Positions 5,815 to 34,465 of a stretch of DNA of 64,000 nucleotides are shown here, piece by piece (the first letter of the stretch is position 1; each line of letters starts with the position of its first letter). The translations under genes and the position numbers were made by a program. The notes under the pieces are model-generated. The model worked only from the letters and a program-made list of their open reading frames with translations. It made no database searches and was not told the DNA's origin. Source of the DNA: Amphiscolops sp. MND2022 (taxonomy: Eukaryota); assembly GCA_964187785.1 (NCBI GenBank), contig OZ076409.1:70434001-70498000 (forward strand), written 5' to 3'.

Positions 5815-6014
5815 NNNNNNNNNNNNNNNNNNNNNNNNNNNNNNNNNNNNNNNNNNNNNNNNNNNNNNNNNNNNNNNNNNNNNNNNNNNNNNNNNNNNNN
5901 NNNNNNNNNNNNNNNNNNNNNNNNNNNNNNNNNNNNNNNNNNNNNNNNNNNNNNNNNNNNNNNNNNNNNNNNNNNNNNNNNNNNNNNNNNNNNNNNNNNN
6001 NNNNNNNNNNNNNN
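5815..6014. other. Assembly gap (200 N)
   Basis: Run of exactly 200 N. Confidence 1.
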
Positions 6015-7735: not shown

Positions 7736-7915
7736 GCTTTTGCAGTTGTATTAGTTTCTAGTATTGTGTAGTATTGCGTTTTGCAACTAATGTATAACAT
7801 AGTTTCTACTTTGTCAAAAAAAGTCAGTGACTTTTTTGACAAACTAGAAACTGTTATACATTAGTTGCAAAACGCAATACTACACAATACTAGAAACTAA
7901 TACAACTGCAAAAGC
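7736..7915. repeat. 180-bp near-perfect palindrome (foldback) with essentially no spacer
   Basis: GCTTTTGCAGTTGTATTAG...AAAGTCA-G-TGACTTT...CTAATACAACTGCAAAAGC. Arms of about 90 bp differ by a few small indels or mismatches; the centre is near 7827. Confidence 0.95.
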
Positions 7916-8047: not shown

Positions 8048-8981
8048 TTTATTTTTATTATTATTAATAGGGCTTCGTGGATATGCCACTGGGGAATTAT
8101 ACCCCGCCATTACAATCTATGATTGGCACGACAGTCCACACATAAGCAAATAAATATCCAAGTACAGTGATTGTTTTCAGTATAATGTCTTAAAATACAT
8201 CCACATATATTCAAGTAGTTTCTTCTTGAGATTCTCCGAGTTGAAGAAATCGAGAGATCTTTGCACGACGTTTATTCTGAATCCAGTTCTGTACCAAAAA
8301 TTCTGCATCTGTATTTCATATCTAGTGTCTGGAAGCACAACACGTCTCCTTCTACCGCTGTTTGTGATTTTGAATTCTTTCGAAAAATCCACATTGTATC
8401 TTCCTTCCAGTATGTTACTGAAACGTAAAAGGTCTTTGAGCACTTTAAAGTAGAGTGGTGGTAATAAGTTTGATTGGACCAAAGCATCCTTTTAATCCAA
8501 GTTCTCGCAAATGCACTTCAAAACTTTTTTGTTGAATGTTTCAATGATTTTGAAACTAGTTTTTCTTAGTTCCCAGCATTCGGATGCAAAAAGTAACGTC
8601 GCTGTTATTATTGTTCGGTAGAGAAGGGCTTTACTTTGGGTACAAATGATCGGGGACGTACTTCTTCTTAGCAGAAAGAAAGATTTTGCTGCTTTCCCAA
8701 CTCTAACTTTGACGTGCTCGGTCCAGTTTAGTGATTCGTCTATCATCAGGCCGACGTCACGAACAAGGTTTTTGTGGTTTAAACTTCGACCCTCCATAAT
8801 GGAACAAACTCCTTCCAGAGTGTTCTTATTTCTGCCGAACTGAAATTCGCTGATTGAACACTTTTTCAAATTGAATAGATGATTTTCACACTCCAGTTGT
8901 GAAGGGCTTGTAAGTCGATTTGTAGTTTCTCTAAGGATTCTTGTTCAGCTCTTCCATTGAAAATCAGTTTCAAATCGTCTG
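8048..8981 (-). mobile_element. 5'-truncated LINE (CR1/L2-like) with RT C-terminal region and AAT-rich tail
   Basis: Reads DDLKL..LQIDLQALHNW, FNLKKC, VRDVGLMIDESLNWTEHV, LLYRTII...ASECW. An (AAT)n/A-rich 3' tail lies at 8048-8068. Stops and frameshifts are present. Confidence 0.85.
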
Positions 8982-9553
8982 TTTAGTATAACCTCCTATA
9001 ACATCGAACCCTTATTTTTCTGGAATGTTTTGCATTTTTGAATGTTTTGCGTGACTCTTGATAAACACTGGGAAACAGTGAAATTTTGTCAAAACATTCC
9101 ATTTAACGGTCGAATTTCGAAAAGAAAATTGTCATTTCCGAGGGTGGGATGTTTTGTTCGGTTTGGTTCATTTTCTGAACCAAAGTCTCTATTTTTTTTC
9201 AAAAAGCGTACTGGGTCTCTAACTGTTTCGTCGTTGAACTCGGTTGATATTCTTACCCACGAAAGCCTACAAAAAAGTGTTCTAAACATGCATAGATATG
9301 GTCAAAAATAGGAAAGTTGGAACCTGGCAATTTTTGCAAAAGAACGCGGTTTACTGATTTTAGTTGCCCTTATGTAAATCTTTGTCGAAATATATACTCA
9401 CTGCACATTAGAATTTTAAATGAATTTGGATATTAAATTAGAAATTAGGAACCAGTCTGGAAAGTGTTTTTACACCGAAAGGGTTTACACAAACGCTTTT
9501 CTTTGTAGAATTTGGTATTCTACAAAGTATCCCGTTCTTCTTTCCCTTTTCAG

Positions 9554-9885
9554 GCATTAGTCTTCGGTTGATATGTGGTGCCGATCTCTTGGAATCGTTC
9601 AACATTCCCAACTTATGGAGCGACGAACATATTCGGAATATCTGTTGTAGACATGGGATCGTGTGCATGGAACGGAAAGGCTACGACGCTGAGAACTTTG
9701 CTAGGACACATCCGATTGTCTCGGAAGAACCGCAGAACGTCTTTATCTTCCAACCGGACGTAGAAAACAACATCAGCTCTACTTTGATCAGAGACTTAGC
9801 TTCTAATGGGCGGTCCCTCAAGTACCTTATTCCTGACGATGTCATTTCCTACATAAAACAGCATAAGTTATACCTAAATATTTGA
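9554..9885 (+). CDS. NMNAT: Terminal coding exon of nicotinamide/nicotinate mononucleotide adenylyltransferase
   Basis: A polypyrimidine tract and CAG acceptor end at 9553. Translation LICGADLLESFNIPNLW...NNISSTLIR...SLKYLIPDDVISYIKQHKLY contains the hallmark CGADLLESF and ISST motifs. Stop TGA at 9883-9885. Upstream exons were not found. Confidence 0.9.
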
Positions 9886-12640: not shown

Positions 12641-14053
12641 ATGGAGAGCAATCATTGTGGTAAAGGTCCAGGGTTCGCCACCCCGAATGATGCAACTAAA
12701 GCGCCCATGGAAAAGCTGGTTTACTTTCCCTGTATTCCAGTTGACAAGCGGAAACCCAATTATTTGGCAACTGTTGATGTCGACCCAGAGTCTTGTACAT
12801 ACAGTCAAGTGATCAGTCGAGCTGAAATCCCTTGCTCTGAGGTGGATGAGCTCCACCACAGTGGCTGGAACTCATGTAGCAGCTGCCATGATGATGCCAC
12901 TCAGAAAAGAAGTTACCTAATTCTGCCTTCTATTACGTCAGCAAAGGTTTTTGTGTTTGATGTCGGAACCAACCCTTTGAACCCCAAATTGCATCACATT
13001 GTTCAAGAAGAAGAAGTTTTGGAAAAGACAGACACGAGCTACTTGCATACTGCTCATTGTCTTGCCGATGGAAACATCATGATCAGTGGGATGGGCGATG
13101 CGAAAGGGTCGCCTAAAGGAAGTTTTGTGCTATTGGATGGAACAACATTCCAAGTTAAAGGAACTTGGCAAAAGAGTGGAACTGAAACTGCTTTTGGTTA
13201 CGACTTCTGGTACCAACCTCGCCATAATGTTATGGTAAGCTCTGAGTGGGGATCCCCACATGCGTTTTGCTCTGGTTTCAATCCGGTGCAAGTCGAGGAA
13301 GGAAAGTATGGTAATAAACTACACATCTGGGAATGGGATAGTCATGAGTATGTCAAGAGCTTAGATCTTGGACCTGAAGGCCTCATTCCGCTGGAAGTTC
13401 GATTTCTACATGAACCATCTGCTAATGTTGGATTTGTGGGCTGCGCTTTGAGCAGCACAGTTTTTAGAATATACCAGGATGACTTGAAAGAATGGCAAGC
13501 CGAGAAAGTAATCCAGGTTCCCCCTGTGGAAGTCGAAGGCTGGGCTTTGCCTCACATGCCTGCTCTTATAACTGATATTCTCATATCAATGGATGACAAG
13601 TTTCTGTATTTCAGCAATTGGCTACAAGGCGACATACGGCAGTATGACATCACGGACACTAGAAACCCTAAATTAGTGGGTCAAGTTTTCATCAGTGGAA
13701 GCCTAGTCCAAGAAGGAAATGTCAAAGTGAAAAGCGGAGATTACAAACAGCCCAAAGCTCTGGTCCTACAAGGCAAGCAGGTGCACGGGGGACCACAGAT
13801 GATTCAGTTGAGTCTCGACGGGAAAAGATTGTATGTAACAACTTCCCTCTTCAGTGCATGGGACAAGCAGTTCTACCCCGACATGTATGAGAAGGGATCC
13901 TTTTTTATTCAAGTTGATGTAGACACCGAGCAAGGCGGGTTGAAAGTGAACGAAAAGTTTGGCGTTGATTTGGGCGATGAGCCTCATGGACCTGCACTGG
14001 CTCATGAAGTGAGATACCCAGGCGGAGACTGTTCGTCTGATATTTGGCTCTAG
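12641..14053 (+). CDS. SELENBP1: Selenium-binding protein 1 / methanethiol oxidase (SBP56 family), 470 aa, single coding exon
   Basis: Uninterrupted ORF. The ATG at 12641 gives [15 protein letters not shown], matching the family N-terminus. Conserved motifs include [65 protein letters not shown] and the terminal [12 protein letters not shown]. Confidence 0.96.
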
Positions 14054-17671: not shown

Positions 17672-18004
17672 CAGGGTTTTGACATCGCTAATTTTTTCCG
17701 CTAATCGCTAAACCGCTAATTTGAAAATCGCTATTTTCTGCAAACTATTAAATGTTCAGTTCAAGTATGTTTCAAAATAATTTATCCGGTTTTTGGAAGG
17801 AAAAAAGACTAGAATTGTTTGTACTGTGCGAGTTTTACAAGGGTAAGAGTTGGAATTTTTCCAAAATTAATTTTGAAACACCGTCTATACCGAGAAGAAA
17901 TTTTGAATTTGGACAATCTGTTAGTTACCGCTAATGAAATCGCTGAAAAATTTCTGTGCGGCCGCTAGTTCACTAAATTGCTGATTAACGGTGTCAAAAC
18001 TCTG
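17672..18004. mobile_element. hAT-superfamily MITE (333 bp)
   Basis: TIRs CAGGGTTTTGACATCG / CGGTGTCAAAACTCTG (14/16 match). Exact 8-bp TSD GCTTTAAC at 17664-17671 and 18005-18012. Sub-terminal CGCTA repeats. Confidence 0.9.
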
Positions 18005-18036
18005 GCTTTAACAGATTACATTTTGCTCTACCTCTA

Positions 18037-19902
18037 CAGTAGACTCGCGATTATCCGAACACTACTTCGAGTGGATAGGTTACCTTGACCTGTTCGGATA
18101 ATCGAATCGGAAAAATTTCAATTGGGAAATGTACAAAATGATCAATTGAAAGAATCAGTCATGTTTTCTGTTCAACAACAACTCAGATAGTTCTTTGAGG
18201 CTTCTCAAAACACTTGTATTGTATACAGTTGCCTCAGGTTGCTCTTCTAGCCATTGCATAGCTCTCGTAATACAATCAAATGCTGCTGAATGGGTCGCAG
18301 AACTACGAATCAATGATTCATCTTCCAATACTTGTATTTCTTCCTCAGATTCAGATGTTTTTAGTCGGCGCCTTCTCGCTTGAAAAAAAGCCCGACTATT
18401 ACAGTGGGTAGTTTTTTCAGCCTACAATCTCACTCTGAATGGTCCATTTTTCTTACAATCTTACAAGTTTTACAATTCTTAATTAGCTTACGAAGTGTAT
18501 TTTTACATCATCTAAGAAACTCGACGGGGCCAAAGGGTATTTTCGGCTCTGTGAGACTTTTTTTCGAAAAAAATTCTCACCAAAGGGTCCCCCTTCAATT
18601 TTTTGATATTGACACAATGGATGTTGAAAAATCCAAAGGGTCCCCTTTCAGTTTTTTTTCGGCATTGTGAGACTTTTTTCCCAAATTATTTTTTTCATAA
18701 AAGGATCCCCAGTTCACCAATACTTTGACATTTTAAAGTCTTTTGCTATTTTTGGGCCTTAGATATGGCGCCGACTTGGGCCGTTCCCGGCTTGTTTCTT
18801 CATGCAAAGAAGGAAACTGATTCGAAGATTTGCTCATCTGATTCAATTTTATGCCCACAATCATTGAAATCTTCTTGATGCCAGTTGTTAACTTCCTCTC
18901 CGAAGTCTTCCCTAGGAGCTAGAGCCTCTAAAATATCGGAAATATGGAGAATATTGCAATCATCTTTTGTCAGCTCAACGTCGTCATTTGACCTATAAAA
19001 TTTTATTCCATGCACGTTCGAGGGTGACAGATGATACAGCCTCCCGACATTCGGGAATCATGTTGCAAATTTTTTGCAGATCTACTCTTCTCATAAATCT
19101 TTCGTAGCCCTAGATTTTCGTAATCCTTGATTTTTTACAGTCTCTTTAGGGTTTCAATGATACCCTCATTGTATCATATGATTACCCTTTTGTAGTCCTA
19201 GATTTTTTATAGTCTTTTTAGGGTTTCAATGATACCCTGATCCATTGGTTGAAAAAGGGAGGTTACATTTGGAGGGAAAAATTGGATTTTTGGGTTTTGA
19301 GTTCTTCGGCATTTGGATTAGCTGCACAATTATCGAACAATAAAAACTGCTTTTTGACTTGCCTCCCCAATCTCTGGTAAATTTTTGGACACGTAGAGAA
19401 TGAAGTTTTCAGAATACCATTCCATGAATATAGAAGTAACCATCCATGCTTTATTTTGATGATAGTATTCAACATTTAGTTTTCTTCCGTTTTTGAATGC
19501 TCTTGGATTATTATACTTTCCAATTCGCAGCAGCGGTAACTGTATACTACCGGAAGCATTTGCACAAACCCCAATCGTAATTCGTTCGTTCGCCTTCTTC
19601 CTTCCTGGAACTGACGATTTTGACAAGGCATAGGTCCTGGTATGAAGCTATCTATAAACCTTCCAGTTTCTGTGTAATTGTCAATGTTTTACGTTTTCGT
19701 TTGTTACATTCCATTTTTGTGTATTACGTGCAAGAAAACAAGAAAAGAATTCAATGAAGAACGATTTTGATCGGTCAATAATGTACAACACTAAATTTAA
19801 TTCCACTATGCACTCATTTACATTTATGTAAACATTGTTTAAACCTCGTTCGCATAATCGAGAGTTCGGATAATCGAGTTTCGGATAATCGCGAGTCTAC
19901 TG
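18037..19902 (-). mobile_element. Defective pogo/Tigger-type DNA transposon
   Basis: Perfect 23-bp TIR CAGTAGACTCGCGATTATCCGAA flanked by TA on both sides. DDE_1-type transposase remnants: KKANERITIGVCANASG..LPLLRIGKYNNPRAFK, QNKAWM...F.EW, LLFDNCAA. It is frameshifted, the N-terminal HTH region is missing, and it carries a nested insertion. Confidence 0.92.
18358..18796 (+). mobile_element. Helentron/HINE-like element nested in the pogo transposase
   Basis: Perfect 10-bp sub-terminal IR AGTCGGCGCC (18363) / GGCGCCGACT (18767), 3' hairpin GCCG-TTCC-CGGC, and T-run ends. Removing it restores the host frame HEETSESEEEIQV with no TSD. Confidence 0.75.
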
Positions 19903-20280
19903 TACATTGATAGTTGTTTTTCAGTGTCAGATCAACCAATTTTCAAATCATTGACACAATTTTTCGACTGGTACCGACTATAGCTGGTTTTACGACACCT
20001 CCATTAGACATATTTTGTCCCTGACTATGTTCAAAAGTACTAGGTACTTCTCAACTTTCTGCGCTTGCTGAAGTTTTGTGGAAGCATTAAATGTGATTTT
20101 TTTCAAGACGACTTCATCATCCTTTTTGTTAGCCAACTTTGGTTGACTGCTCCTAGTCTTTAACTAGTTTGTTCAATTCTAGTAGCAACGAGGCCGTGCT
20201 TTCATTGACATGAACATGTTGACACTGTTCAAAATGTGAAGTTCATTTTTGTGAATCCTTTACGTTAAAATGATCCCCTT

Positions 20281-20340
20281 TTCTCCCCATCTCTCTCCCT
20301 CTCTATCTCTATCAATCCATCTATCTATGTCTCTCTTTCA
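20281..20340. repeat. CT/CTAT-rich low-complexity microsatellite
   Basis: ctccccatctctctccctctctatctctatcaatccatctatctatgtctctct. Confidence 0.7.
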
Positions 20341-20459
20341 TTATATTTCGGGAAAACCGCGGGTTTTTTGCAAACAAAAGCTTCCGAAATACACCAAGAA
20401 CGGCGACGAATTGTTCGAGAAGGCAGTTTTGCCTAAAATACATTTTCTGGCTTATCCCC

Positions 20460-20833
20460 TTCCCTAAACACATTACTTTTTTTTCCAGCGATGGGTTGAT
20501 ACATCGGAAAAAAGTTTTCATTCGCAACGACAAAAGCTCACTGACATTATTCCAGCGATGGGTTGATACAAAGACTCGAAAGCTCCACGGACTGATCAAA
20601 AATGAGATGGATCCACTCGGGCTATCATATAAGGAACTCAATCGCCAATTTATTGAAAATTTACACTCTAATCGATTGTCCACCCATATAAGAAATTTCG
20701 GCAGTCTGAAAACAGAAAGAGAGAAGTGGAATTTCTTTAATGAAGCTCGAAACTCAAAACGAACGAAATCTTAACGAAATTAGTACAGTATGCTGATGAC
20801 ATTTTTCTGTTTGTTTCATCCAAAAACTTTAAT
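20460..20833 (+). pseudogene. Internally deleted LINE ORF2 remnant, ending where the array begins
   Basis: KLVQYADDIFLFVSSKNFNL with the RT catalytic YADD at 20789-20800, preceded by a linker-like segment (EKWNFFNEARNSK). Confidence 0.65.
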
Positions 20834-22119
20834 CTAGGTGGCCGGAAATTTTTTTTTCAGCAAAATCTTTGCCATTGGGGGAGGGGCCCCGGATGGCCAG
20901 TAGTACGGTATAGCTTCCTACCAAATCCAGATGGAAAAAACGTGATTTTGGAAACTAGCCGTCAGAATTTGCTCAAATTTTGCATACGGCTTCCTATGAC
21001 AATCCTAAGAACTAATCCCTACTGGCATTTTGCCCAAAAAACGCAAAAAGTTGGTCAAAATCTTAGTTTTTTGGTCAAAAAATGGCGTTTTTTCGAAAAA
21101 AAATTTTTTCAGAGACAATTACTCGTAACTGGTTCACCCAGCGCAAAAACGCCTAGCTGATTTATTGTTGGGCACTTCATGAGGAGTGCGTATACAATTT
21201 TTCGTCGAGATCGGAAAAAAAATGACTAAGTATTAGCCGGAATTCGGACGCATTTTTTCGCAAATTTTTGAAAACCTAGTCTATCTCTGCCGTTTTTTGC
21301 CCAGATTTTTTTCCAGGTCCTCTCCTAAAGGCCTCCCCTGGCCGGTTTACTTCCCAGAAAAACCAACTGGCCCTAAATACGGAGTTTCAGCGTTCTAGCA
21401 TTCCCGGGCGAAAAGATGTGGGACTTAGAAAAAATTCAAAATTTTTCAAAAAATTTTTTTTTCGTTTTCCGGCCCCCCAATGAAGGGGAACGACCCCCCA
21501 ACGAGGATTTTTGGTGAATTCACGTGGAAAGGCCTTGTTTTGTGGAGCAAATTGCCGTTTAGAGCAACTTTTTATCTTAACTTGACGTTGACCTCTGTCG
21601 TTTTGAATTTGATATTAGTATGTGTTGAGCATGTGAAAAATTGATGATTTCAGTTGTTCTCTCGTGTTCAAGCCATTGAGATACAAGCGGTAGTGATCAA
21701 AATGTGATTTATCGCAATTTGATGGTGCTTTTGGTGTATTTTGATTCTTTTAAATAAAAAGTTGTTCTTTATATATTTGGTGTATTGATTCAAATGAACA
21801 AGAAACAGTTGAGTACATTTCATCTCCCCCCTTGTGGGGGAGATGAGGATGTACCCGCTAAATGACACGCACAATGGCCTAATTTTATTTTTATGCGACA
21901 TTTTCTAGGCTTTTGCGCAAGCCCACTAAAATTTAGACTGGTTTCCTTTTCTTTTACTCCAAAATTTTCCGTACTAACCACCTTACGCACCACCAGCTCA
22001 ACGAACATCTGTAACGTCAACGCCACATACTCGCATCAACGCCCACCGTCCGTGGGCATGCCGAGGCATGCCCTTCGACGACGTATGCCAAATAGCGCCA
22101 CAGGGCGCAAACATTCCCG
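20834..22119 (+). mobile_element. Unit U0: divergent 1286-bp member with shared ends and an unrelated interior
   Basis: Starts CTAGGTGGC and shares the terminal module from 22012. It has iso-structural hairpins at 20871-20897 and 21813-21854. I could not align the rest by eye to other units. Confidence 0.75.
22054..22073. promoter_or_regulatory. Palindrome matching a p53-family response element (first of 20 copies, one per complete unit)
   Basis: GGGCATGCCG-AGGCATGCCC is two RRRCWWGYYY half-sites with zero spacer and one mismatch. A units carry AGGCATGCCG-AGGCATGCCT. Function is untested. Confidence 0.5.
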
Positions 22120-25100
22120 CTAGGTGGCGGGGGGCTGTCCCCAATAGAATATAGTGAGGTAGGGTAGGGTTCCCTACCGAACATTCAGTACTGAAAGACT
22201 CTTGTAGTATGAAAATTTTTCGATGTTTTGAGACCGATTTCGGATTCCACCCGTCAGAAGTTTATGATTTTTTGGCCCCCACCCAGATTTTGGGCACTGA
22301 TCGCCCCCCACCAGGTTCCATACCCGTGGTTTCGTTGTGACGGGTACACGAGCGACCGTTAGGGGTCAATCAGGGGGTAAAATTTATAAAAGTGTGAATA
22401 ACTTTTCCCCCCGTCGTTTTAGCAGGTCCGGTCACTAGTAAAGGTTTGTTGGGCATCATGCAGTGGGTACGGGGGGCCAAACAAAAATTTTCTATCTTGC
22501 ACCGTTACGGACTTGGCCCCCCGCCCAAACCGCTATTTTACCGGAAATTGCACTTTTTGACCGGGAAGGAGTCGTCTGAGCGCGGAGTCATTTGGTAATG
22601 TTTTGTAGAGCATCTGGAGACGTGGTGGGGGACATGTAGTTTGCCGACCCCAGTTTACCCCTCGGACGGGAAATGACCGTTATGTGAGTTTCAAAAATGC
22701 CCCCCTCCAATTTTCCCCGCAATTTTCGGTGTGAAGGAGTCGGAATAGCGTGTCGAGTGCTATATATCAAAAGTAGCTTTAAACAAGGACCTATCAGAAA
22801 CATGTGGTTTGGGACCCTTTGAACGGACCCGTTAGCCGGAAATAGGGTGACCGCCTCCTTTTTTTGGTGGTAAAACCGTAAAACGGGCATTAAAGTGTAA
22901 TTATCTCGTGAACGCGTGGAGCAATCGTGTCCATCACTCCTACAAGGTTTCATACCCATGACATGGTGCCTTCAGGGGGGCAAACAGATCAGCGCTATCT
23001 ATCACCGTTACGGACTTTGCCCCCGAGCCTAACCGCTATATTACCGGAAATTGCCCTTTTTGACCGGGAAGGAGTCGTCTGAGAGTGGAGTCGTTAAGTA
23101 ATGTTTTGTAGAGCATCTAGAGACGTGTTGGGGGACATGTAGTTTGCCGACCCCGGTTTACCCCTCGGACGGGAAATTACCGTTATGTGAGTTTTAAAAT
23201 TGACCCCCTTCAACTTTCCCCGTTATTTCCGATGTGAAGGAGTGAGGGTAGCGCGTCGGGTGTCATATATCAAAAGTAGGTTAAGACAAGGACCAACCGG
23301 GAACGTGTTGTTTGGGACCCTCTGGCCCAACCCGTTAGCCGTTATAAGGGTGATCGCCTCCTTTTTTTACTGCTAAAACCGGAAAACGGGCATTGAGGGG
23401 TAAATATCTCGTGAACGCGTGGAGCAATCGTGTCCATCACTACTACAAGGTTTCATACCCATGATACGGTGCCTTCAGGGGGGAAAACAGATTACCGCTA
23501 TATATCACCGTTACGGACTTGGCCCCCCAGCCTAACCACTATGTGACCGGAAATGTCATTTTTTGAGCCAAAAGGGTTGGTCCCAGCGTGGGAACGTCAG
23601 GTAACTTTATGTAGAACTCAATGAGACGAGTTGGGGGATATAGTTTTAGTCACCCCCCGTTGACCCGTTGGACCGGAAACGACCGTTATGTAGTGAAAAA
23701 TGTTATTTTTATACTTTTTGAAGGCCATTTAGGGCAGGAAGTATCGGTAATATGTCTTTGGACAGTATACAATGAAAGTTTTGGTGTGAAACGAGCAATC
23801 TGAAATAACCGTTATTATGATTCGGAAGTCACACTAACAGCGAAAATGACCGTTATGTAGTGAAAATTTTTTTCACAATTTTTTTTTATTTTCGATAGGT
23901 CCTTCAAGCCAGGAAGTAGCTGTATTAGGTCTTTGGTCACTTTATGATGATTGTGGTGTTGTGAGATGACCGTACGAACTTGACCGTTATAATGCCCCTG
24001 AAGTTGCGGCGGCACGAGAAATTTCAGAAAGTTTGTCTTTTCTGTGTTTTGTTGGACTAAACATGTAATTTCATCAAACCAAAGTGCATTCAGGGTGTCA
24101 GAAAGCTTCAAGAAAAGAATTTGACAGGAAACATGAGGTGAGAAATAGGAAAATGCCACGGAAATCCAACCCGCTGGGAAGTAAAGATAATAAATTGGTT
24201 TGGAAGTGCCAATCGACGTGTAATTGCGGATCATAGCTACGATATTGTCTCTTTTGTTTCTTTTTGAAGACTTTGAACATTTTCACTTTATCAGCTTGAA
24301 GTTTCGACTCCATTAACTCAATAACCGTTACAATATGATAGCCCTCAAGTTGACCTTGTGTCAACTTGAAAGGGCTATCCTTTCACAACTGCGCAGCGAC
24401 AGTGTGATTGAGTGTTTTTGTTATTATCCATAGCCAATTTGAACTTCAACAAAAGTTTAACCATAATTAAAAAATTTCATATGATTCTTTTAAAAGGATA
24501 AGTAAGAAACAAATGTTTGACAAAAAACTTTCAACCTTTAATTTGTGGACTGAATATCAGGAAAACCATGTCTCCTAACGTTGTTGGATGAAATTCAACA
24601 TGATTCTTTTAATAGGATAACAAAGTTTGACAACATATTTTTTTATATTCTTTCGTTGGTGCTCTACATTTTAGGAAAACGAATTTTCCAACAAATATTG
24701 TTGGCTGATGCCTGTTCATAGTGGCTTGAAAATTTCACCAACTGTAATGCTTTTTATCAAAGGTGAAACCGCTCCTTACCGTCGCATAATGTAATTCAAG
24801 CCAACGCCCACATGCCAACATCAACGCCCACCGTCCGTAGGCATGCCGAGGCATGCCTTCCGACGACGTATGCCAAATCACGCCCCTGCGAGGTCACTAA
24901 AGCGGTAGCAGCTAGGTGGCGGGGGGCTGTCCCCAATAGAATATAGTGAGGTAGGGTAGGGTTCCCTACCGAACATTCAGTACTGAAAGACTCTTGTAGT
25001 ATGAAAATTTTTCGATGTTTTGAGACCGATTTCGGATTCCACCCGTCAGAAGTTTATGATTTTTTGGCCCCCACCCAGATTTTGGGCACTGATCGCCCCC

Positions 25101-27708
25101 CACCAGGTTCCATACCCGTGGTTTCGTTGTGACGGGTACACGAGCGACCGTTAGGGGTCAATCAGGGGGTAAAATTTATAAAAGTGTGAATAACTTTTCC
25201 CCCCGTCGTTTTAGCAGGTCCGGTCACTAGTAAAGGTTTGTTGGGCATCATGCAGTGGGTACGGGGGGCCAAACAAAAATTTTCTATCATGCACCGTTAC
25301 GGACTTGGCCCCCCGCCCAAACCGCTATTTTACCGGAAATTGCACTTTTTGAACGGGAAGGAGTCGTCTGAGCGCGGAGTCGTTTGGTAATGTTTTGTAG
25401 AGCATCTGAAGACGTGGTGGGGGACATGTAGTTTGCCGACCCCAGTTTACCCCTCGGACGGGAAATGACCGTTATGTTAGTTTTAAAATTGCCCCCTGTC
25501 AACTTTAACCGCTATTTCTGGTGTGAAGGAGTCGGAACAGCGTGTCGGGTGCTATATATCAAAAGTAGCTTTAAACAAGGACCTATCAGAAACATGTGGT
25601 TTGGGACCCTTTGAACGGACCCGTTAGCCGGAAATAGGGTGACCGCCTCCTTTTTTTGGTGTTAAAACCGTAAAACGGGCATTAAAGTGAAATTATCTCG
25701 TGAACGCGTGGAGCAATCGTGTCCATCACTCCTACAAGGTTTCATACCCATGACATGGTGTCTTCAGGGGGGCAAACAGATCAGCGCTATCTATCACCGT
25801 TACGGACTTTGCCCCCCAGCCTAACCGCTATATTACCGGAAACTGCCCTTTTTGACCGGGAAGGAGTCGTCTGAGAGTGGAGTCGTTAAGTAATGTTTTG
25901 TAGAGCATCTAGAGACGTGTTGGGGGACATGTAGTTTGCCGACCCCTGTTTACCCCTCGGACGGGAAATGACCGTTATGTTAGTTTTAAAATTGCCCCCC
26001 GTCAACTTTAACCGCTATTTCTGGTGTGAAGGAGTCGGAATAGCGTGTCGGGTGCTACATATCAAAAGTAGCTTTAAACAAGGACCTATCAGAAACATGT
26101 GGTTTGGGACCCTTGGAACGGACCCGTTAGCCGGAAATAGGGTGACCGCCCCCTTTTTCTGCGGTTAAAATTGTAAAACGGGCATTGAAGTGGAATTATC
26201 TTGGAAACGCGTGGAGCTATAGTGTCCTTCACTACTACAAGGTTTCATACTCAAGATACGGTGCCTTCAGGGGGGAAAACAGATTACCGCTATATATCAC
26301 CGTTACGGACTTGGCCCCCCAGCCTAACCGCTATGTTACCGGAAATGTCATTTTTTGAGCCAAAAGGGTTAGTCCCAGCGTGGGAACGTCAGGTAACTTT
26401 ATGTAGAACTCAATGAGACGAGTTGGGGGATATGGTTTCAGTCACCCCCCGTTGACCCGTTAGACCGGAAACGACCGTTATGTAGTGAAAAATGTAATTT
26501 TTATACTTTTTGAAGGCCATTTAGGGCAGGAAGTATCGGTAATATGTCTTTGGACAGTATACAATGAAAGTTTTGGTGTGAAACAAGCAATCTGAAATAT
26601 CCGTTATTATGATTCGGAAGTCACACTAACAGCGAAAATGACCGTTATGTAGTGAAAATTTTTTTCACATTTTTTTTGCTTTCGATAGGTCCTTCAAGCC
26701 AAGAAGTAGCTGTATTAGGTCTTTGGCCACTTTATGATGATTGTGGTGTTGTGAGATGACCGTACGAACTTGACCTTTATAATGCCCCTGAAGTTGCTGC
26801 GGCACGAGAAATTTCAGAAAGTTTGTCTTTTCTGTGTTTTGTTGGAATAAACATTTAATTTCATTAAACCAATGTGCATTCAGGGTGTTTAGAAAGCTTC
26901 AAGAAAAGAATTTAATAGGAAACATGGCGGTGAGAAATAACAAATTGCCACGTAAATCCAACCCCCGTTGGGGAATAAATGTAATAAATTGTTTTGGAAG
27001 TGCCAATCGACGTGTATTTGCGGATCATAGCCACGGTATTGTCTATTCGTGTTTCTTTTTGAAGACTTTGAACATTTTCACTTTATCAGCTTGAGGTTTT
27101 AACTCTATATGCTTAATAACCGTTACAATATGATAGCCCTCAAGTTGACCTTGTGTCAACTTGAAAGGGCTATCCTTTCACAACTGCGCAGCAACAGTGT
27201 GATTGAGTGATTTAGTTATTATCCAAGGCCAATTTGAACTTCAACAAGATTTTAACCACAATATTTAAAACTATTCATATGATTCTTTCAAAAGGGTAAA
27301 TATTTAACTAATATTTGACAAAAAACTCCAACCTTTAATTTGTGGACCGAATAGTAGGAAAACCATGTTTCTTAACGTTGTTGGATGAAATTCAAAATGA
27401 TGCTTTTAAAAGAATAACAATTCTTGACACTATATATTTTTTCTATTTTCCAATAAACTATTTTTCCAAAAGTCTATTTTTCCAATAAACATTGTTGATT
27501 GATGCCCATTCATAGTGACTGGAAAGTTTTACCAACTGTGGTGTTTTTTTTAATCAGAGGTGAAACCGCTCCCTACCGTCGCATAATGTAATTTAAGCCG
27601 ACGCCCACATGCCAACATCAACGCCCACCGTCCGTAGGCATGCCGAGGCATGCCTTTCGACGACGTATGCCAAATCACGCCCCTGCGAGGTCACTAAAGC
27701 GGTAGCGG
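22120..27708 (+). repeat. Units U1 and U2, subfamily A (2792 and 2797 bp)
   Basis: Head GTGGCGGGGGGCTGTCCCC, an internal 503-bp duplication and an A-specific 3' half. Confidence 0.9.
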
Positions 27709-30700
27709 CTAGGTGCGGGGGGGAAACCCCATCCCTTATCTTGGAGGATTCGGGTAGGGTCCTGAATCCGAGTTCAGTGCCGCCAGCTCTCAGTAGAAAT
27801 CTGGGAAATTTTTTGCGATCTCGTGATCTAACCATAGGATTTTAAAGTTGGAGCGGCCCCCACCAGATTTTCCAAAGTTATTCGCCCCCCACCGGGTTCC
27901 AGCGTGATTGAAATATTTTGTCGAGGTACACGGGCGACCGTTAGGGGTCATTTTAGGGGTAAAATTCATATTGGGCCACATAACTTTTTTTCTGTTGATT
28001 TAAAACTTTAGGACCCTGCTAAAAGTTTCTTGACCATGTTGCAGGGGCCCCGGAGGTCCAAACCAAATTTTTCTATCTTAAAGCTATCTCCAAGTACCCC
28101 CCCGCCCAAACCGTTATTTTTCCGGAAACGCCGGTTTTTGACCCGGAAGGAGTCGTCTGAGCGCGGGGTCGTTAGGTGATGTTTTGGGGACGGCCTCGAG
28201 ACGAAGCGGGGGATATATAGTTTGCCGATCCCAGTTTACCCCCCGCACGGGAAATGACCGTTATATGAGCGGGAAAAATGCCCCCCTCCACGTTTTACCG
28301 CTATTTCCGGTGTGAAGGAGTGGGAGTAGCGCGTCGGGTGTTATATAACAAAAGTAGGTTTAGACAAGGACCTATCGAAAACATGTAGTTTGGGACCCCC
28401 TGGTCCAACCCGTTAGCGGGAAATGGGGCTTCCGCCTCCTTTTTTTACTGCTAAAACCGTAAAATGGGCATTGAGGGGTAAATATCTCGTGAACGCGTGG
28501 AGCAATCGTGTCCATCACTACTACAAGGTTTCATACCCATGATATGGTGCCTTCAGGGGGGCAAACAGATTTCCGCTATCTATCACCGTTACCGACTTGG
28601 CCCCCCAGCCTAACCGCTATGTGACCGGAAATGTCACTTTTTGAGCCCAAAGTGTCGGTCCCAGCCGGGGAACGTTAGGTAACTTATTGTAGTACTCAAT
28701 GAGACGAGTTGGGGGGTATAGTTTCAGTCACCCCCCGTTACCCCTTGGGACCGGAAATGACCGTTATGTGGGTAAAATTGCCATTTTTGTCCTATTTGGA
28801 GGGCATTTAGATGCGGAAGGAGTGGTAATAGGTGCTTGGACACTGTATGATGTAAAAGAGGACGTGATGCGAGCATTCGAAATTAACCGTTATGTTGACC
28901 CCTAAGTCCCCCTGGTACCGTAAATGACCGGAAATGGTCTAATTTTGTGTTTATTGGGTACAAATGTTTGGTATTTTATGAATTAAAGTACATGGAAGGT
29001 GTTTCAAAGGCCTCCAGAAGTGAACATCGTCATGAAACCTTGTGGGGGGTAACGGTATATAACACCGGAAGTCCAAACCGTTGGTCACAGAATAGGTTTT
29101 TTGGTTTCAAAATGTCTTTAGGCGTAGTTTTATGGGTTGAATCGTCATAATATCAACTATTACGGACATTTTTCGGAAAAAAAAATTTTTCACATTAGTT
29201 TCAGAGACCTCCAATGCTTCAGTCAACATAACCGTTACATTTTGATAGCCTTTCAAGTTGGCCTGGCGTCAACTTGGAAGGGCTATCCTTCTAAAATCGT
29301 TAATCAAGAGTGTTTTTGGGTAGGTATATGTTGCATTAGTACCAATTAGAGCTTCATCAACAGTTTGCCAACGGCAAAAACGATGTCGTGATAATTCCGT
29401 TATAAGAATATTAATTAAAAAATTGTTTACAAAGTTGATTTTTTTCATTTAAAATGTGTCCTAATGCCACCAAATTGAATAAAATAATAAATGGTATTGA
29501 CTAAAACTAAATAACATTGAAAAAGAAGATCAACATTTTTATTAGGTCTCATTATGGAAGCTGAAACCTCACGTTTTAACTTGATTAACGTCAACGCCAC
29601 ATACTTTACATCAACGCCCACCGTCTGTGGGCATGCCGAGGCATGCCCTTCGACGACGTATACCAAATTCCTCCAACACAACACCCCCGAGCGCGGTAGC
29701 AGCTAGGTGCGGGGGGGAAACCCCTTCCTTTATCTTGGAGGATTCGGGTAGGGTCCTGAATCCGATCTTAGTTCGCCCAGCTCTCAGTAGAAATCTGGGA
29801 AATTTTTTGCGATCTCGTGATCTAACCATAGGATTTTAAAGTTGGAGCGGCCCCCACCAGATTTTCCAAAGTTATTCGCCCCCCACCGGGTTCCAGCGTG
29901 ATTGAAATATTTTGACGGGGTACACGGGCGACCGTTAGGGGTCATTTTGGGGGTAAAATTTATATCCGGTCGCATAACTTTTTTCCTGTTGGATTAAAAC
30001 TTTGGGACCCTGCTAAAAGTTTCTTGACCGTGTTGCGGGGGCTCCGGAGGTCCAAACCAAATTTTTCTATCTTGAAGCTATCTCCAAGTACCCCCCCGCC
30101 CAAAACGTTATTTTTCCGGAAACGCAGGTTTTTGACCCGGAAGGAGTCGTCTGAGCGCGGGGTCGTTAGGTGATGTTTTGGGGACGGCCTTGAGACGAAG
30201 CGGGGGATATATAGTTTGCCGACCCCAGTTTACCCCCCGCACGGGAAATGACCGTTATATGAGCGGGAAAAATGCCCCCCTCCACGTTTTACCGCTATTT
30301 CCGGTGTGAAGGAGTGGGAGTAGCGCGTCGGGTGTTATATAACAAAAGTAGGTTTAGACAAGGACCTATCGGAAACATGTAGTTGGCGACCCCCTGGACC
30401 AACCCGTTAGCGGGAAATGGGGCTTCCGCCTCCTTTTTTTACTGCTAAAACCGTAAAATGGGCATTGAGGGGTAAATATCTCGTGAACGCGTGGAGCAAT
30501 CGTGTCCATCACTACTACAAGGTTTCATACCCATGATATGGTGCCTTCAGGGGGGCAAACAGATTTCCGCTATCTATCACCGTTACCGACTTGGCCCCCC
30601 AGCCTAACCGCTATGTGACCGGAAATGTCACTTTTTGAGCCCAAAGGGTCGGTCCCAGCCGGGGAACGTTAGGTAACTTATTGTAATACTCAATGAGACG

Positions 30701-31674
30701 AGTTGGGGGATATAGTTTCAGTCACCCCCCGTTACCCCTTGGGACCGGAAATGACCGTTATGTGGGTAAAATTGCAATTTTTATACTTTTTTAAGTGTAT
30801 TTAGGTGCGGAAGGAGTGGTAATAGGTGCTTGGACACTATATGAGGCAAGGGAGGACGTGAGGCGAGCATTCGGAAATAACCGTTATGTTGACCCTAAAG
30901 TCCCCCTGGTACCGTAAACGACCGGAAATGGTCAAATTTTGTGTCTATTGGGTACAAATGTTTAGTATTTTGTAGATAAAAGTATCTATTAGGTGTTTCG
31001 ACGGTCTGCAATAGTGAACATAGTCATGAAACCTTGTGGGGGGTAACGGGGTATATAGCACCGGAAGTCCAAACCGTTGGACACAGGATAGGTTTTTGGT
31101 TTGTAAATGTCTTTTGGCGTACTTTTGTCGACTATTATGGACTATTATTAAAAATTAAAGTTTTTCCATATAGTTTCAGAGACTCCGAAACCTCAACCAA
31201 CATAACCGTTACATTTTGATAGCCTTTCAAGTTGGCCTGGTGTCAACTTGGAAGCGCTATCCTTCTGAAATCGTTAATCAAGAGTGTTTTTGGGTAGGTA
31301 TATATTGCATTAGTACCAATTAGAGCTTCATCAACAGTGTATCAACGACAAAAACTATGCCGTCATGATTCCGTTATCAGAATCATAGTGAGCAAATTGT
31401 TGAAAAAAATGGTTTTTTCCATACAAAAGGTGTCCTAAATGCCAGGAAACCTATTTACCTAACAAATGGTATTAATTGGAATGTATGTAACAGATTTATA
31501 AAAGTTCAAATTGAATATTACATTTCATTATGGAAGCTGAAACGTCATATTTTAGTTTAATTAACGTCAACGCCACACACTTTACATCAACGCCCACCGT
31601 CTGTGGGCATGCCGAGGCATGCCCTTCGACGACGTATGACAAATCCATATCAAACGACGCCCGTACATCCCGGG
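27709..31674 (+). repeat. Units U3 and U4, subfamily B (1994 and 1972 bp)
   Basis: Head GTGCGGGGGGGAAACCCC; the two units have different 3' halves. Confidence 0.9.
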
Positions 31675-34465
31675 CTAGGTGGCGGGGGGCTGTCCCCAAT
31701 AGAATATAGTGAGGTAGGGTAGGGTTCCCTACCGAACATTCAGTACTGAAAGACTCTTGTAGTATGAAAATTTTTCGATGTTTTGAGACCGATTTCGGAT
31801 TCCACCCGTCAGAAGTTTATGATTTTTTGGCCCCCACCCAGATTTTGGGCACTGATCGCCCCCCACCAGGTTCCATACCCGTGGTTTCGTTGTGACGGGT
31901 ACACGAGCGACCGTTAGGGGTCAATCAGGGGGTAAAATTTATAAAAGTGTGAATAACTTTTCCCCCCGTCGTTTTAGCAGGTCCGGTCACTAGTAAAGGT
32001 TTGTTGGGCATCATGCAGTGGGTACGGGGGGCCAAACAAAAATTTTCTATCTTGCACCGTTACGGACTTGGCCCCCCGCCCAAACCGCTATTTTACCGGA
32101 AATTGCACTTTTTGACCGGGAAGGAGTCGTCTGAGCGCGGAGTCATTTGGTAATGTTTTGTAGAGCATCTGGAGACGTGGTGGGGGACATGTAGTTTGCC
32201 GACCCCAGTTTACCCCTCGGACGGGAAATGACCGTTATGTGAGTTTCAAAAATGCCCCCCTCCAATTTTCCCCGCAATTTCCGGTGTGAAGGAGTCGGAA
32301 TAGCGTGTCGAGTGCTATATATCAAAAGTAGCTTTAAACAAGGACCTATCAGAAACATGTGGTTTGGGACCCTTTGAACGGACCCGTTAGCCGGAAATAG
32401 GGTGACCGCCTCCTTTTTTTGGTGGTAAAACCGTAAAACGGGCATTAAAGTGTAATTATCTCGTGAACGCGTGGAGCAATCGTGTCCATCACTCCTACAA
32501 GGTTTCATACCCATGACATGGTGTCTTCAGGGGGGCAAACAGATCAGCGCTATCTATCACCGTTAAGGACTTTGCCCCCCAGACTAACCGCTATATTACC
32601 GGAAATTGCCCTTTTTGACCGGGAAGGAGTCGTCTGAGAGTGGAGTCGTTAAGTAATGTTTTGTAGAGCATCTAGAGACGTGTTGGGGGACATGTAGTTT
32701 GCCGACCCCGGTTTACCCCTCGGACGGGAAATTACCGTTATGTGAGTTTTAAAATTGACCCCCTTCAACTTTCCCCGTTATTTCCGATGTGAAGGAGTGA
32801 GGGTAGCGCGTCGGGTGTCATATATCAAAAGTAGGTTAAGACAAGGACCAACCGGGAACATGTTGTTTGGGACCCTCTGGCCCAACCCGTTAGCCGTTAT
32901 AAGGGTGATCGCCTCCTTTCTTTACTGCTAAAACCGGAAAACGGGCATTGAGGGGTAAATATCTCGTGAACGCGTGGAGCAATCGTGTCCATCACTACTA
33001 CAAGGTTTCATACCCATGATACGGTGCCTTCAGGGGGGAAAACAGATTACCGCTATATATCACCGTTACGGACTTGGCCCCCCAGCCTAACCGCTATGTG
33101 ACCGGAAATGTCATTTTTTGAGCCAAAAGGGTTGGTCCCAGCGTGGGAACGTCAGGTAACTTTATGTAGAACTCAATGAGACGAGTTGGGGGATATAGTT
33201 TTAGTCACCCCCCGTTGACCCGTTGGACCGGAAACGACCGTTATGTAGTGAAAAATGTTATTTTTATACTTTTTGAAGGCCATTTAGGGCAGTAAGTATC
33301 GGTAATATGTCTTTGGACAGTATACAATGAAAGTTTTGGTGTGAAACGAGCAATCTGAAATAACCGTTATTATGATTCGGAAGTCACACTAACAGCGAAA
33401 ATGACCGTTATGTAGTGAAAATTTTTTTCACAATTTTTTTTATTTTCGATAGGTCCTTCAAGCCAGGAAGTAGCTGTATTAGGTCTTTGGTCACTTTATG
33501 ATGATTGTGGTGTTGTGAGATGACCGTACGAACTTGACCGTTATAATGCCCCTGAAGTTGCGGCGGCACGAGAAATTTCAGAAAGTTTGTCTTTTCTGTG
33601 TTTTGTTGGAATAAACATGTAATTTCATCAAACCAAAGTGCATTCAGGGTGTCAGAAAGCTTCAAGAAAAGAATTTGACAGGAAACATGAGGTGAGAAAT
33701 AGGAAAATGCCACGGAAATCCAACCCGTTGGGAAGTAAAGATAATAAATTGGTTTGGAAGTGCCAATCGACGTGTAATTGCGGATCATAGCTACGATATT
33801 GTCTCTTTTGTTTCTTTTTGAAGACTTTGAACATTTTCACTTTATCAGCTTGAAGTTTCGACTCCATTAACTCAATAACCGTTACAATATGATAGCCCTC
33901 AAGTTGACCTTGTGTCAACTTGAAAGGGCTATCCTTTCACAACTGCGCAGCGACAGTGTGATTGAGTGTTTTTGTTATTATCCATAGCCAATTTGAACTT
34001 CAACAAAAGTTTAACCATAGTTAAAAAATTTCATATGATTCTTTTAAAAGGATAAGTAAGAAACAAATGTTTGACAAAAAACTTTCAACCTTTAATTTGT
34101 GGACTGAATATCAGGAAAACCATGTCTCCTAACGTTGTTGGATGAAATTCAACATGATTCTTTTAATAGGATAACAAAATTTGACAACATATTTTTTTAT
34201 ATTCTTTCGTTGGTGCTCTACATTTTAGGAAAACGAATTTTCCAACAAATATTGTTGGCTGATGCCTGTTCATAGTGGCTTGAAAATTTCACCAACTGTA
34301 ATGCTTTTTATCAAAGGTGAAACCGCTCCTTACCGTCGCATAATGTAATTCAAGCCGACGCCCACATGCCAACATCAACGCCCACCGTCCGTAGGCATGC
34401 CGAGGCATGCCTTTCGACGACGTATGCCAAATCACGCCCCTGCGAGGTCACTAAAGCGGTAGCGG
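31675..34465 (+). repeat. Unit U5, subfamily A (2791 bp), near-identical to U1 and lying among B units
   Basis: Matches 22120-24911 with few substitutions. The switches B to A and A to B occur exactly at CTAG. Confidence 0.9.

Follow-up and report, generated by a model that had tools for sequence, protein, structure and literature searches.

Long arrays of units derived from transposable elements are usually ascribed to rolling-circle concatemers or to unequal exchange. The target of IS91 resembles the element's own end. IS91 inserts beside a tetranucleotide, and Replitrons and IS91-type HUH elements have short terminal direct repeats, a right-end hairpin and an orientation-specific target (PMC10288648); Replitrons are reported from plants, algae and protists. 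Canonical Helitron1 elements have a CTAG 3' end and no terminal inverted repeats (TIRs), and circular intermediates and tandem arrays have been described for them (PMC5876387, PMC12001565). Elements of the Helitron2/Helentron type (HINE, DINE-1 and FoHeli) are non-coding and carry internal subrepeats and a palindrome some tens of nucleotides before the 3' end, with reports of tandem and self-insertions (PMC4067079, PMC5148889); in the Fusarium FoHeli elements the 3' hairpin lies 38-51 bp from the end (PMC5148889). Crypton tyrosine recombinase (YR) transposons also lack TIRs, carry terminal direct repeats of 4-6 bp and have been proposed to form a circular intermediate that integrates (PMC3212892), and long mixed arrays are not described in the available text on Cryptons. 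Double insertions of Drosophila P, hobo and R1 elements retain the target word between head-to-tail copies, these tandems consisting for the most part of two copies of a single TIR or non-LTR family, later expanded by unequal exchange (PMC5932611). Other Helitron, satellite or Crypton cases, as far as the available text of the papers goes (PMC13085455, PMC13404089, PMC5753468), do not match the array studied here. In the literature covered, in which subscription papers are few and Repbase is not included, neither this element nor mixed-family arrays at a CTAG core were described.

In this work we analysed a window of 64,000 nucleotides, by which we mean the whole stretch of DNA. From position 20834 to its end the window is occupied by at least 21 units of three interleaved non-coding families, arranged head to tail in a single orientation (plus strand), the last of which runs off the window. 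The first unit, U0 (20834-22119, 1286 bp), is the sole member of its family in the window. It is followed by U1 and U2 (22120-27708), members of a 2.79-kb family with internal subrepeats of about 503 bp. The third member of that family, U5 (31675-34465), stands amid seventeen units of 1.97-1.99 kb belonging to several subfamilies, which together with U5 fill positions 27709-64000 and continue past the window end. The junctions in this part lie at 27709, 29703, 31675, 34466, 36432, 38403, 40394, 42368, 44363, 46336, 48308, 50274, 52266, 54241, 56211, 58204, 60174 and 62167. The two large families are 67-70% alike, and U0 shares only its ends with them. The array was missed by TRF because its period exceeds 500. 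A Pfam search of 42 open reading frames (ORFs) from four units gave nothing above the cut-off, two sub-threshold matches being taken as noise, and no transposase or recombinase gene was found among these ORFs. Rfam gave no match at an E value of 1 or better over positions 18000-32000, and thus no known RNA gene or ribozyme there.

Outside the array, the window contains an assembly gap of about 200 N (5815-6014), a 180-bp foldback element with perfect arms of 64 nt (7736-7915), and an ORF (9445-9882) with a weak cytidylyltransferase-like match (E 0.065), which may be NMNAT-like. A dispersed degenerate repeat family is present in many short copies between 10400 and 18800 (families D1 and D3-D9), and an intronless gene for a selenium-binding protein (SBP56, 470 aa) lies at 12641-14053. 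A pogo/Tigger-like element (18035-19904) has perfect inverted ends of 25 nt, including the TA, and contains a DDE_1 fragment on the minus strand (19333-19647). Together with the LINE relics described below, the intronless SBP56 gene and the pogo-like element suggest that the DNA is eukaryotic and probably that of an invertebrate.

According to the original prediction, the array begins precisely at a CTAG, and the flank junction uses the same core as the junctions between units. Both statements were borne out, with one correction to the length of the core. The left edge reads AAT-CTAG-GTGGCC (20831-20843), with CTAG at 20834-20837. For the longer word CTAGGTG, 3.74 matches would be expected in the window (SD 2.05, maximum of 12 in 100 shuffles); 21 were counted, one at the left edge and the others at the 20 junctions between units. 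The word common to the edge and the junctions has 7 nucleotides, not 4, and the crossover at the left edge lies somewhere within these seven bases (20834-20840, plus strand). Directly 5' of the core, each of the 20 internal junctions has a G, and the left edge a T. The position of U0 relative to the core was assessed with an HMM built from the left arms of the other units, from which the first 10 nt had been removed in order to mask the core. This model matched U0 at 20876-20971 (9.1 bits, E 0.0053, the best of three matches in 22 kb), that is at offset 43 where about 42 was expected. The left arm is thus in register with 20834, which indicates that U0 begins at this CTAG. Pairwise comparisons of left arms were weaker, two out of six beating all 200 shuffles. 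No remnant of a unit right end was detected to the left of 20850 (best E 6.8). The left flank is A/T-rich and unlike the unit right ends, which places any determinant of the target at the C of CTAG or to the right of it.

All 20 complete units carry a subterminal box of 51 bp with 88-100% identity (22037-22087 in U0, plus strand). The box includes an 18-nt palindrome (22055-22072), located 47-55 nt before CTAG in 20/20 units. It is separated from the core by a subfamily-specific tail (22088-22119 in U0, plus strand), which measures 32-40 nt across the units. If the core is assigned to the right end, every complete unit ends in GCTAG. An intron-like reading of the units (GT...AG if cut after CTAG) was considered and rejected: the donors would be GTGCGG, GTGGCG or GTGGCC, the intron donor consensus being GTRAG, and several tails contain earlier AGs. 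Each family also has an internal hairpin with a stem of 10-11 bp (21820-21846 on the plus strand in U0, 24345-24369, 29249-29281 and equivalents), lying about 550, 425 or 280 bp before the unit's right end; that of U0 differs in sequence from the others. The shared palindrome resembles the hairpins quoted for FoHeli in its centre and in its distance from the end (PMC5148889).

A motif scan of metagenome contigs resulted in a single match, contig L001. This contig contains a U0-like unit (60% identity over 878 columns) with the same 51-bp box and palindrome and a similar internal hairpin with a changed loop, followed by a unit resembling U1 and U3. Since L001 has the same architecture, the latter is not confined to the window locus. 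The L001 junction (880-886) reads CGAGGTG in place of CTAGGTG, so that the T of CTAG varies in the one case from outside the window, AGGTG being common to L001 and the window. Motif scans of viral contigs gave no match. Those of prokaryote genomes gave one, L002, which was dropped as a chance hit, only 23-24 nt of the palindrome being matched.

The relationships between units indicate how the array was built. Among 14 pairs examined, three were at least 99% identical from core to core and no further, namely U1/U5 (17 differences in 2792 bp), U4/U12 (6 in 1972 bp) and U6/U13 (15 in 1966 bp). In these pairs divergence starts at -1, -2 and -3, respectively, on the left side of the core and at +7, +7 and +15 on the right side. 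That whole monomers are exchanged and that the breakpoints fall in the core implies a target defined by sequence. The pair U4/U16 is an exception, in that identity extends 99 bp further left past the junction, where the neighbouring units share a tail type. When the ends of high-identity tracts (40 ends; the tracts are not independent of each other) were placed on the array, 15 fell within 45 bp of a junction, against 4.6% expected. The remaining 25 lie inside units at recurring places, and homologous exchange or mosaic subfamilies therefore also shape the array. Recurring subfamily breakpoints were observed in units U3-U20 at offsets of about +74, +174, +965, -379 and -915, making these units mosaics of modules.

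Tail sequences covary with the upstream body, on the far side of the 51-bp box (rho 0.60, p 0.0002), but show no such relation to the downstream body (rho 0.07, p 0.18), and heads covary with the downstream body (rho 0.60); a weak association between tail and head remains across the core (rho 0.17, p 0.025). Ancestry thus switches within the 8-bp GCTAGGTG and not in the box located 32-40 nt upstream. Homologous exchange should resolve in the 51-bp box, whereas here linkage survives the box and breaks within 8 bp, which is the pattern of independent monomer insertion. This suggests that the array is not a simple satellite and that its monomers were inserted independently at the junction.

We consider it probable, as judged from the sequence, that the units are non-autonomous elements without TIRs, inserted singly and in succession at a CTAG(GTG) site which regenerates itself. 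Each unit would be a non-autonomous DNA element bounded by one shared copy of CTAG(GTG). An unseen autonomous partner would release monomers as circles closed at the core, and the partner's enzyme would integrate these circles at a core-like target. Insertion would leave a core on both sides, so that the junctions would remain targets and the array would grow by stacking. As for the enzyme, our tentative preference is for a Helitron-like HUH (rolling-circle) transposase, with a Crypton-like tyrosine recombinase as the second candidate. The transposase would cut 3' of CTAG and, by analogy with IS91, pick a target resembling its own end. This preference is based on the CTAG at the 3' end of the plus strand, the palindrome 47-55 nt upstream and the variable spacing between box and core.

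The original prediction further placed the left edge inside a LINE reverse transcriptase (RT) frame. LINE RT sequence with a YADD motif is indeed present at the edge, as a relic of 20 codons and not as an open RT frame. The flank contains first a part of the endonuclease-RT linker region of ORF2 (20499-20771, plus strand, frame +3), aligned with P0003 at 81% identity (91 aa) and with P0004 at 80% (55 aa), the latter protein extending beyond the linker into the start of the RT domain. After an internal deletion of 286-290 codons, estimated with seven relatives as a yardstick and accompanied by a frame change, there follow the 20 codons with the YADD motif (20774-20833, plus strand, frame +2). 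In the translation of the window, frame +2 of the left flank reads ...KLVQYADDIFLFVSSKNFN and runs into the core, LTKLVQYADDIFLFVSSKNFNL being the frame +2 reading with the Y codon at 20789. The Pfam RVT_1 match on this frame was below the cut-off (E 0.074), and five LINE proteins matched 20774-20851 by tblastn (E 0.001-0.01); the linker and the YADD motif are homologous to non-LTR elements. A 20-nt direct duplication (20484-20503 and 20551-20570), joined at a short shared word, marks the place where the relic is broken at its 5' side. A second decayed LINE piece, with weak tblastn matches, lies on the minus strand at 8177-8944.

It was also proposed that the founding unit integrated at a genomic CTAG. 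A genomic CTAG as the founder's target gains support from the exchange of whole monomers and from the determinant located at or to the right of the C. For a native origin of this CTAG in the LINE the evidence is mixed. Among 28 close relatives, 24 had a usable YADD region. At the position of the codon CTA, after the aligned Asn, these 24 relatives have Thr in 10 cases, other hydrophobic residues in 4 and Leu in none. The missing Leu does not settle the matter, since the window residue two codons before CTA is likewise found in 0/24 relatives. Directly after the CTA position, 21/24 relatives have a residue with a G-initial codon. P0195, which is among the five best-matching proteins, has N-I-A at the aligned position. 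By columns 20-21 the LINE pattern is gone, with L and E in 21/24 relatives and F and F in the window. Assuming a Leu frequency of 3-10%, the likelihood ratio for a native CTAG versus background is approximately 1.5-5. Searches for a same-family LINE protein spanning YADD gave three candidates with a 41-aa query, none at an E value of 10 or better, and no closer protein in a 50%-cluster search; the closest proteins, P0003-P0005, stop before YADD.

The CTAG might instead derive from the left end of the element, the array having been built elsewhere or as mixed circles and then joined, or the edge being a deletion breakpoint. The absence of Leu at the column speaks for such an origin, as do the CGAG of L001, the deletion of about 870 bp located 60 bp from the array edge and the 20-nt duplication at the 5' break. 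In addition, LINE similarity is certain only up to 20833, and the final L of 'NFNL', being encoded by the CTA of the core, may not belong to the LINE. Against this stand the edge exactly at the start of a unit and in register, as enzymatic insertion predicts, the G-initial codon that fits the LINE, and the N-I-A of P0195. We regard this alternative as rather unlikely. A native CTAG is favoured because the left flank is unlike the unit right ends, with the target signal starting at the C or rightward, and on balance a CTAG in the decayed LINE is the most likely target of the founder, a native CTAG being plausible, if unproven. Next to the array the LINE has already undergone deletion and rearrangement, and its frame may therefore not resume even if the CTAG is native. 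The stacking at the 8-bp core is a more solid result than this step.

The same stacking could be due to a Crypton-like tyrosine recombinase with CTAGGTG as an overlap of 6-8 bp, in which case the LINE would natively have read N-L-G followed by a G-initial codon. The units resemble Cryptons in the absence of TIRs and in their short terminal direct repeats, here of 7 nt at both ends of every unit (PMC3212892), and Gly follows in 3/24 LINE relatives. They differ from them in that no inverted arms of 11-13 bp consistently flank the core, a 5-bp inverted pair at the U0/U1 junction not being conserved elsewhere, that the spacing between box and core varies from 32 to 40 nt, and that no YR gene was seen in the 42 ORFs from four units. 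We consider a Crypton-like enzyme rather unlikely, though second to an HUH transposase among the candidates.

An ordinary complex satellite, in which one founder was amplified by unequal crossing-over or rolling-circle concatemers and junction conservation is a by-product, appears improbable. It would account for the head-to-tail arrangement in one orientation, for the mosaic breakpoints inside units and for the adjacent units U19 and U20, which are 96% alike, and Helitron-derived arrays are known (PMC12001565). Neighbours in U1-U20 are slightly more alike than shuffled ones (p 0.052); those in U6-U18 are no more alike (89.9 vs 91.1%, p 0.94). However, the closest relative is non-adjacent for 19/21 units, no 99% tract spans two units, and crossovers occur within 8 bp and not in the 51-bp box, the part with the best homology. 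The break of linkage in the 8-bp core largely refutes this explanation.

The comparison with Helitron1 is similarly unfavourable. A canonical Helitron1 reading would have U0 start at A|TC (20833) and end in a hairpin plus CTAG. AA-TC does precede U0, a hairpin with a 5-bp stem lies about 11 nt before its CTAG, and the GCTAG ends of all 20 complete units agree with the CTRR 3' end, L001 having CGAG. Helitron junctions join CTAG directly to TC (PMC5876387); here none of the 20 does so, TC being possible only at the left edge of U0. The U0 hairpin belongs to this unit's own tail, and no hairpin 10-12 nt from the 3' end is common to the units; their shared palindrome lies 47-55 nt away in front of differing tails, there is no A|T target, and neighbours are of different families. 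We thus consider this reading very improbable. Still less probable is a DDE transposon with CTAG as target-site duplication, stacked by repeated insertion as in P elements: double insertion is recognised by a target word that persists between tandem copies (PMC5932611), but the units have no TIR, the ends of 6/6 units tested matching at 5-8 of 30 nt.

With HINE, DINE-1 and FoHeli (PMC4067079, PMC5148889) the units share their non-coding nature, internal subrepeats and the subterminal palindrome near the 3' end, present in 20/20 units and in L001. In contrast to these elements, their junctions read G-CTAG-GTG and not TT or a T-rich target, their 5' end is GTG, they stack strictly at the CTAG core, and asymmetric subterminal inverted repeats of 11-16 nt are absent from 20/20 units, the longest match being 5-8 nt at inconsistent places. 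With Replitrons they share short terminal direct repeats and a right-end palindrome, and they differ from them in that no Rep gene was seen and no fuzzy junction ends are present. In its manner of growth the array would resemble the double-insertion tandems (PMC5932611), in which dimers prevail, whereas at least 21 monomers of three families are stacked here; in appearance the units are close to non-autonomous elements derived from Helitrons (PMC4067079, PMC12001565, PMC5876387). By these sequence features the termini fit no canonical superfamily, failing the defining features of Helitron1, Helitron2/HINE and TIR elements.

Several observations count against integration of single monomers at a self-regenerating core: no solo copy or empty site was seen, the L001 junction is CGAG, Leu is missing in the LINE relatives, identity in U4/U16 overruns the junction by 99 bp, a tail-head association of rho 0.17 persists, and the p value for U1-U20 neighbours is 0.052. 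In a more speculative reading, to which we give a low probability, the units may belong to a group of DNA transposons in animals that is new to the literature, with an enzyme that would integrate circular monomers site-specifically at a core of 4-7 bp regenerated by each insertion. This enzyme would thereby build integron-like cassette arrays of tens of kilobases, in which several families share one subterminal recognition box. Since the termini match no canonical superfamily, a new Helitron variant or a recombinase with a short defined target may serve as the partner enzyme. The features of the array are those expected of single insertions repeated at its own junction. This would be a third way to long arrays next to rolling-circle concatemers and unequal exchange, one that has so far been shown mainly for dimers.
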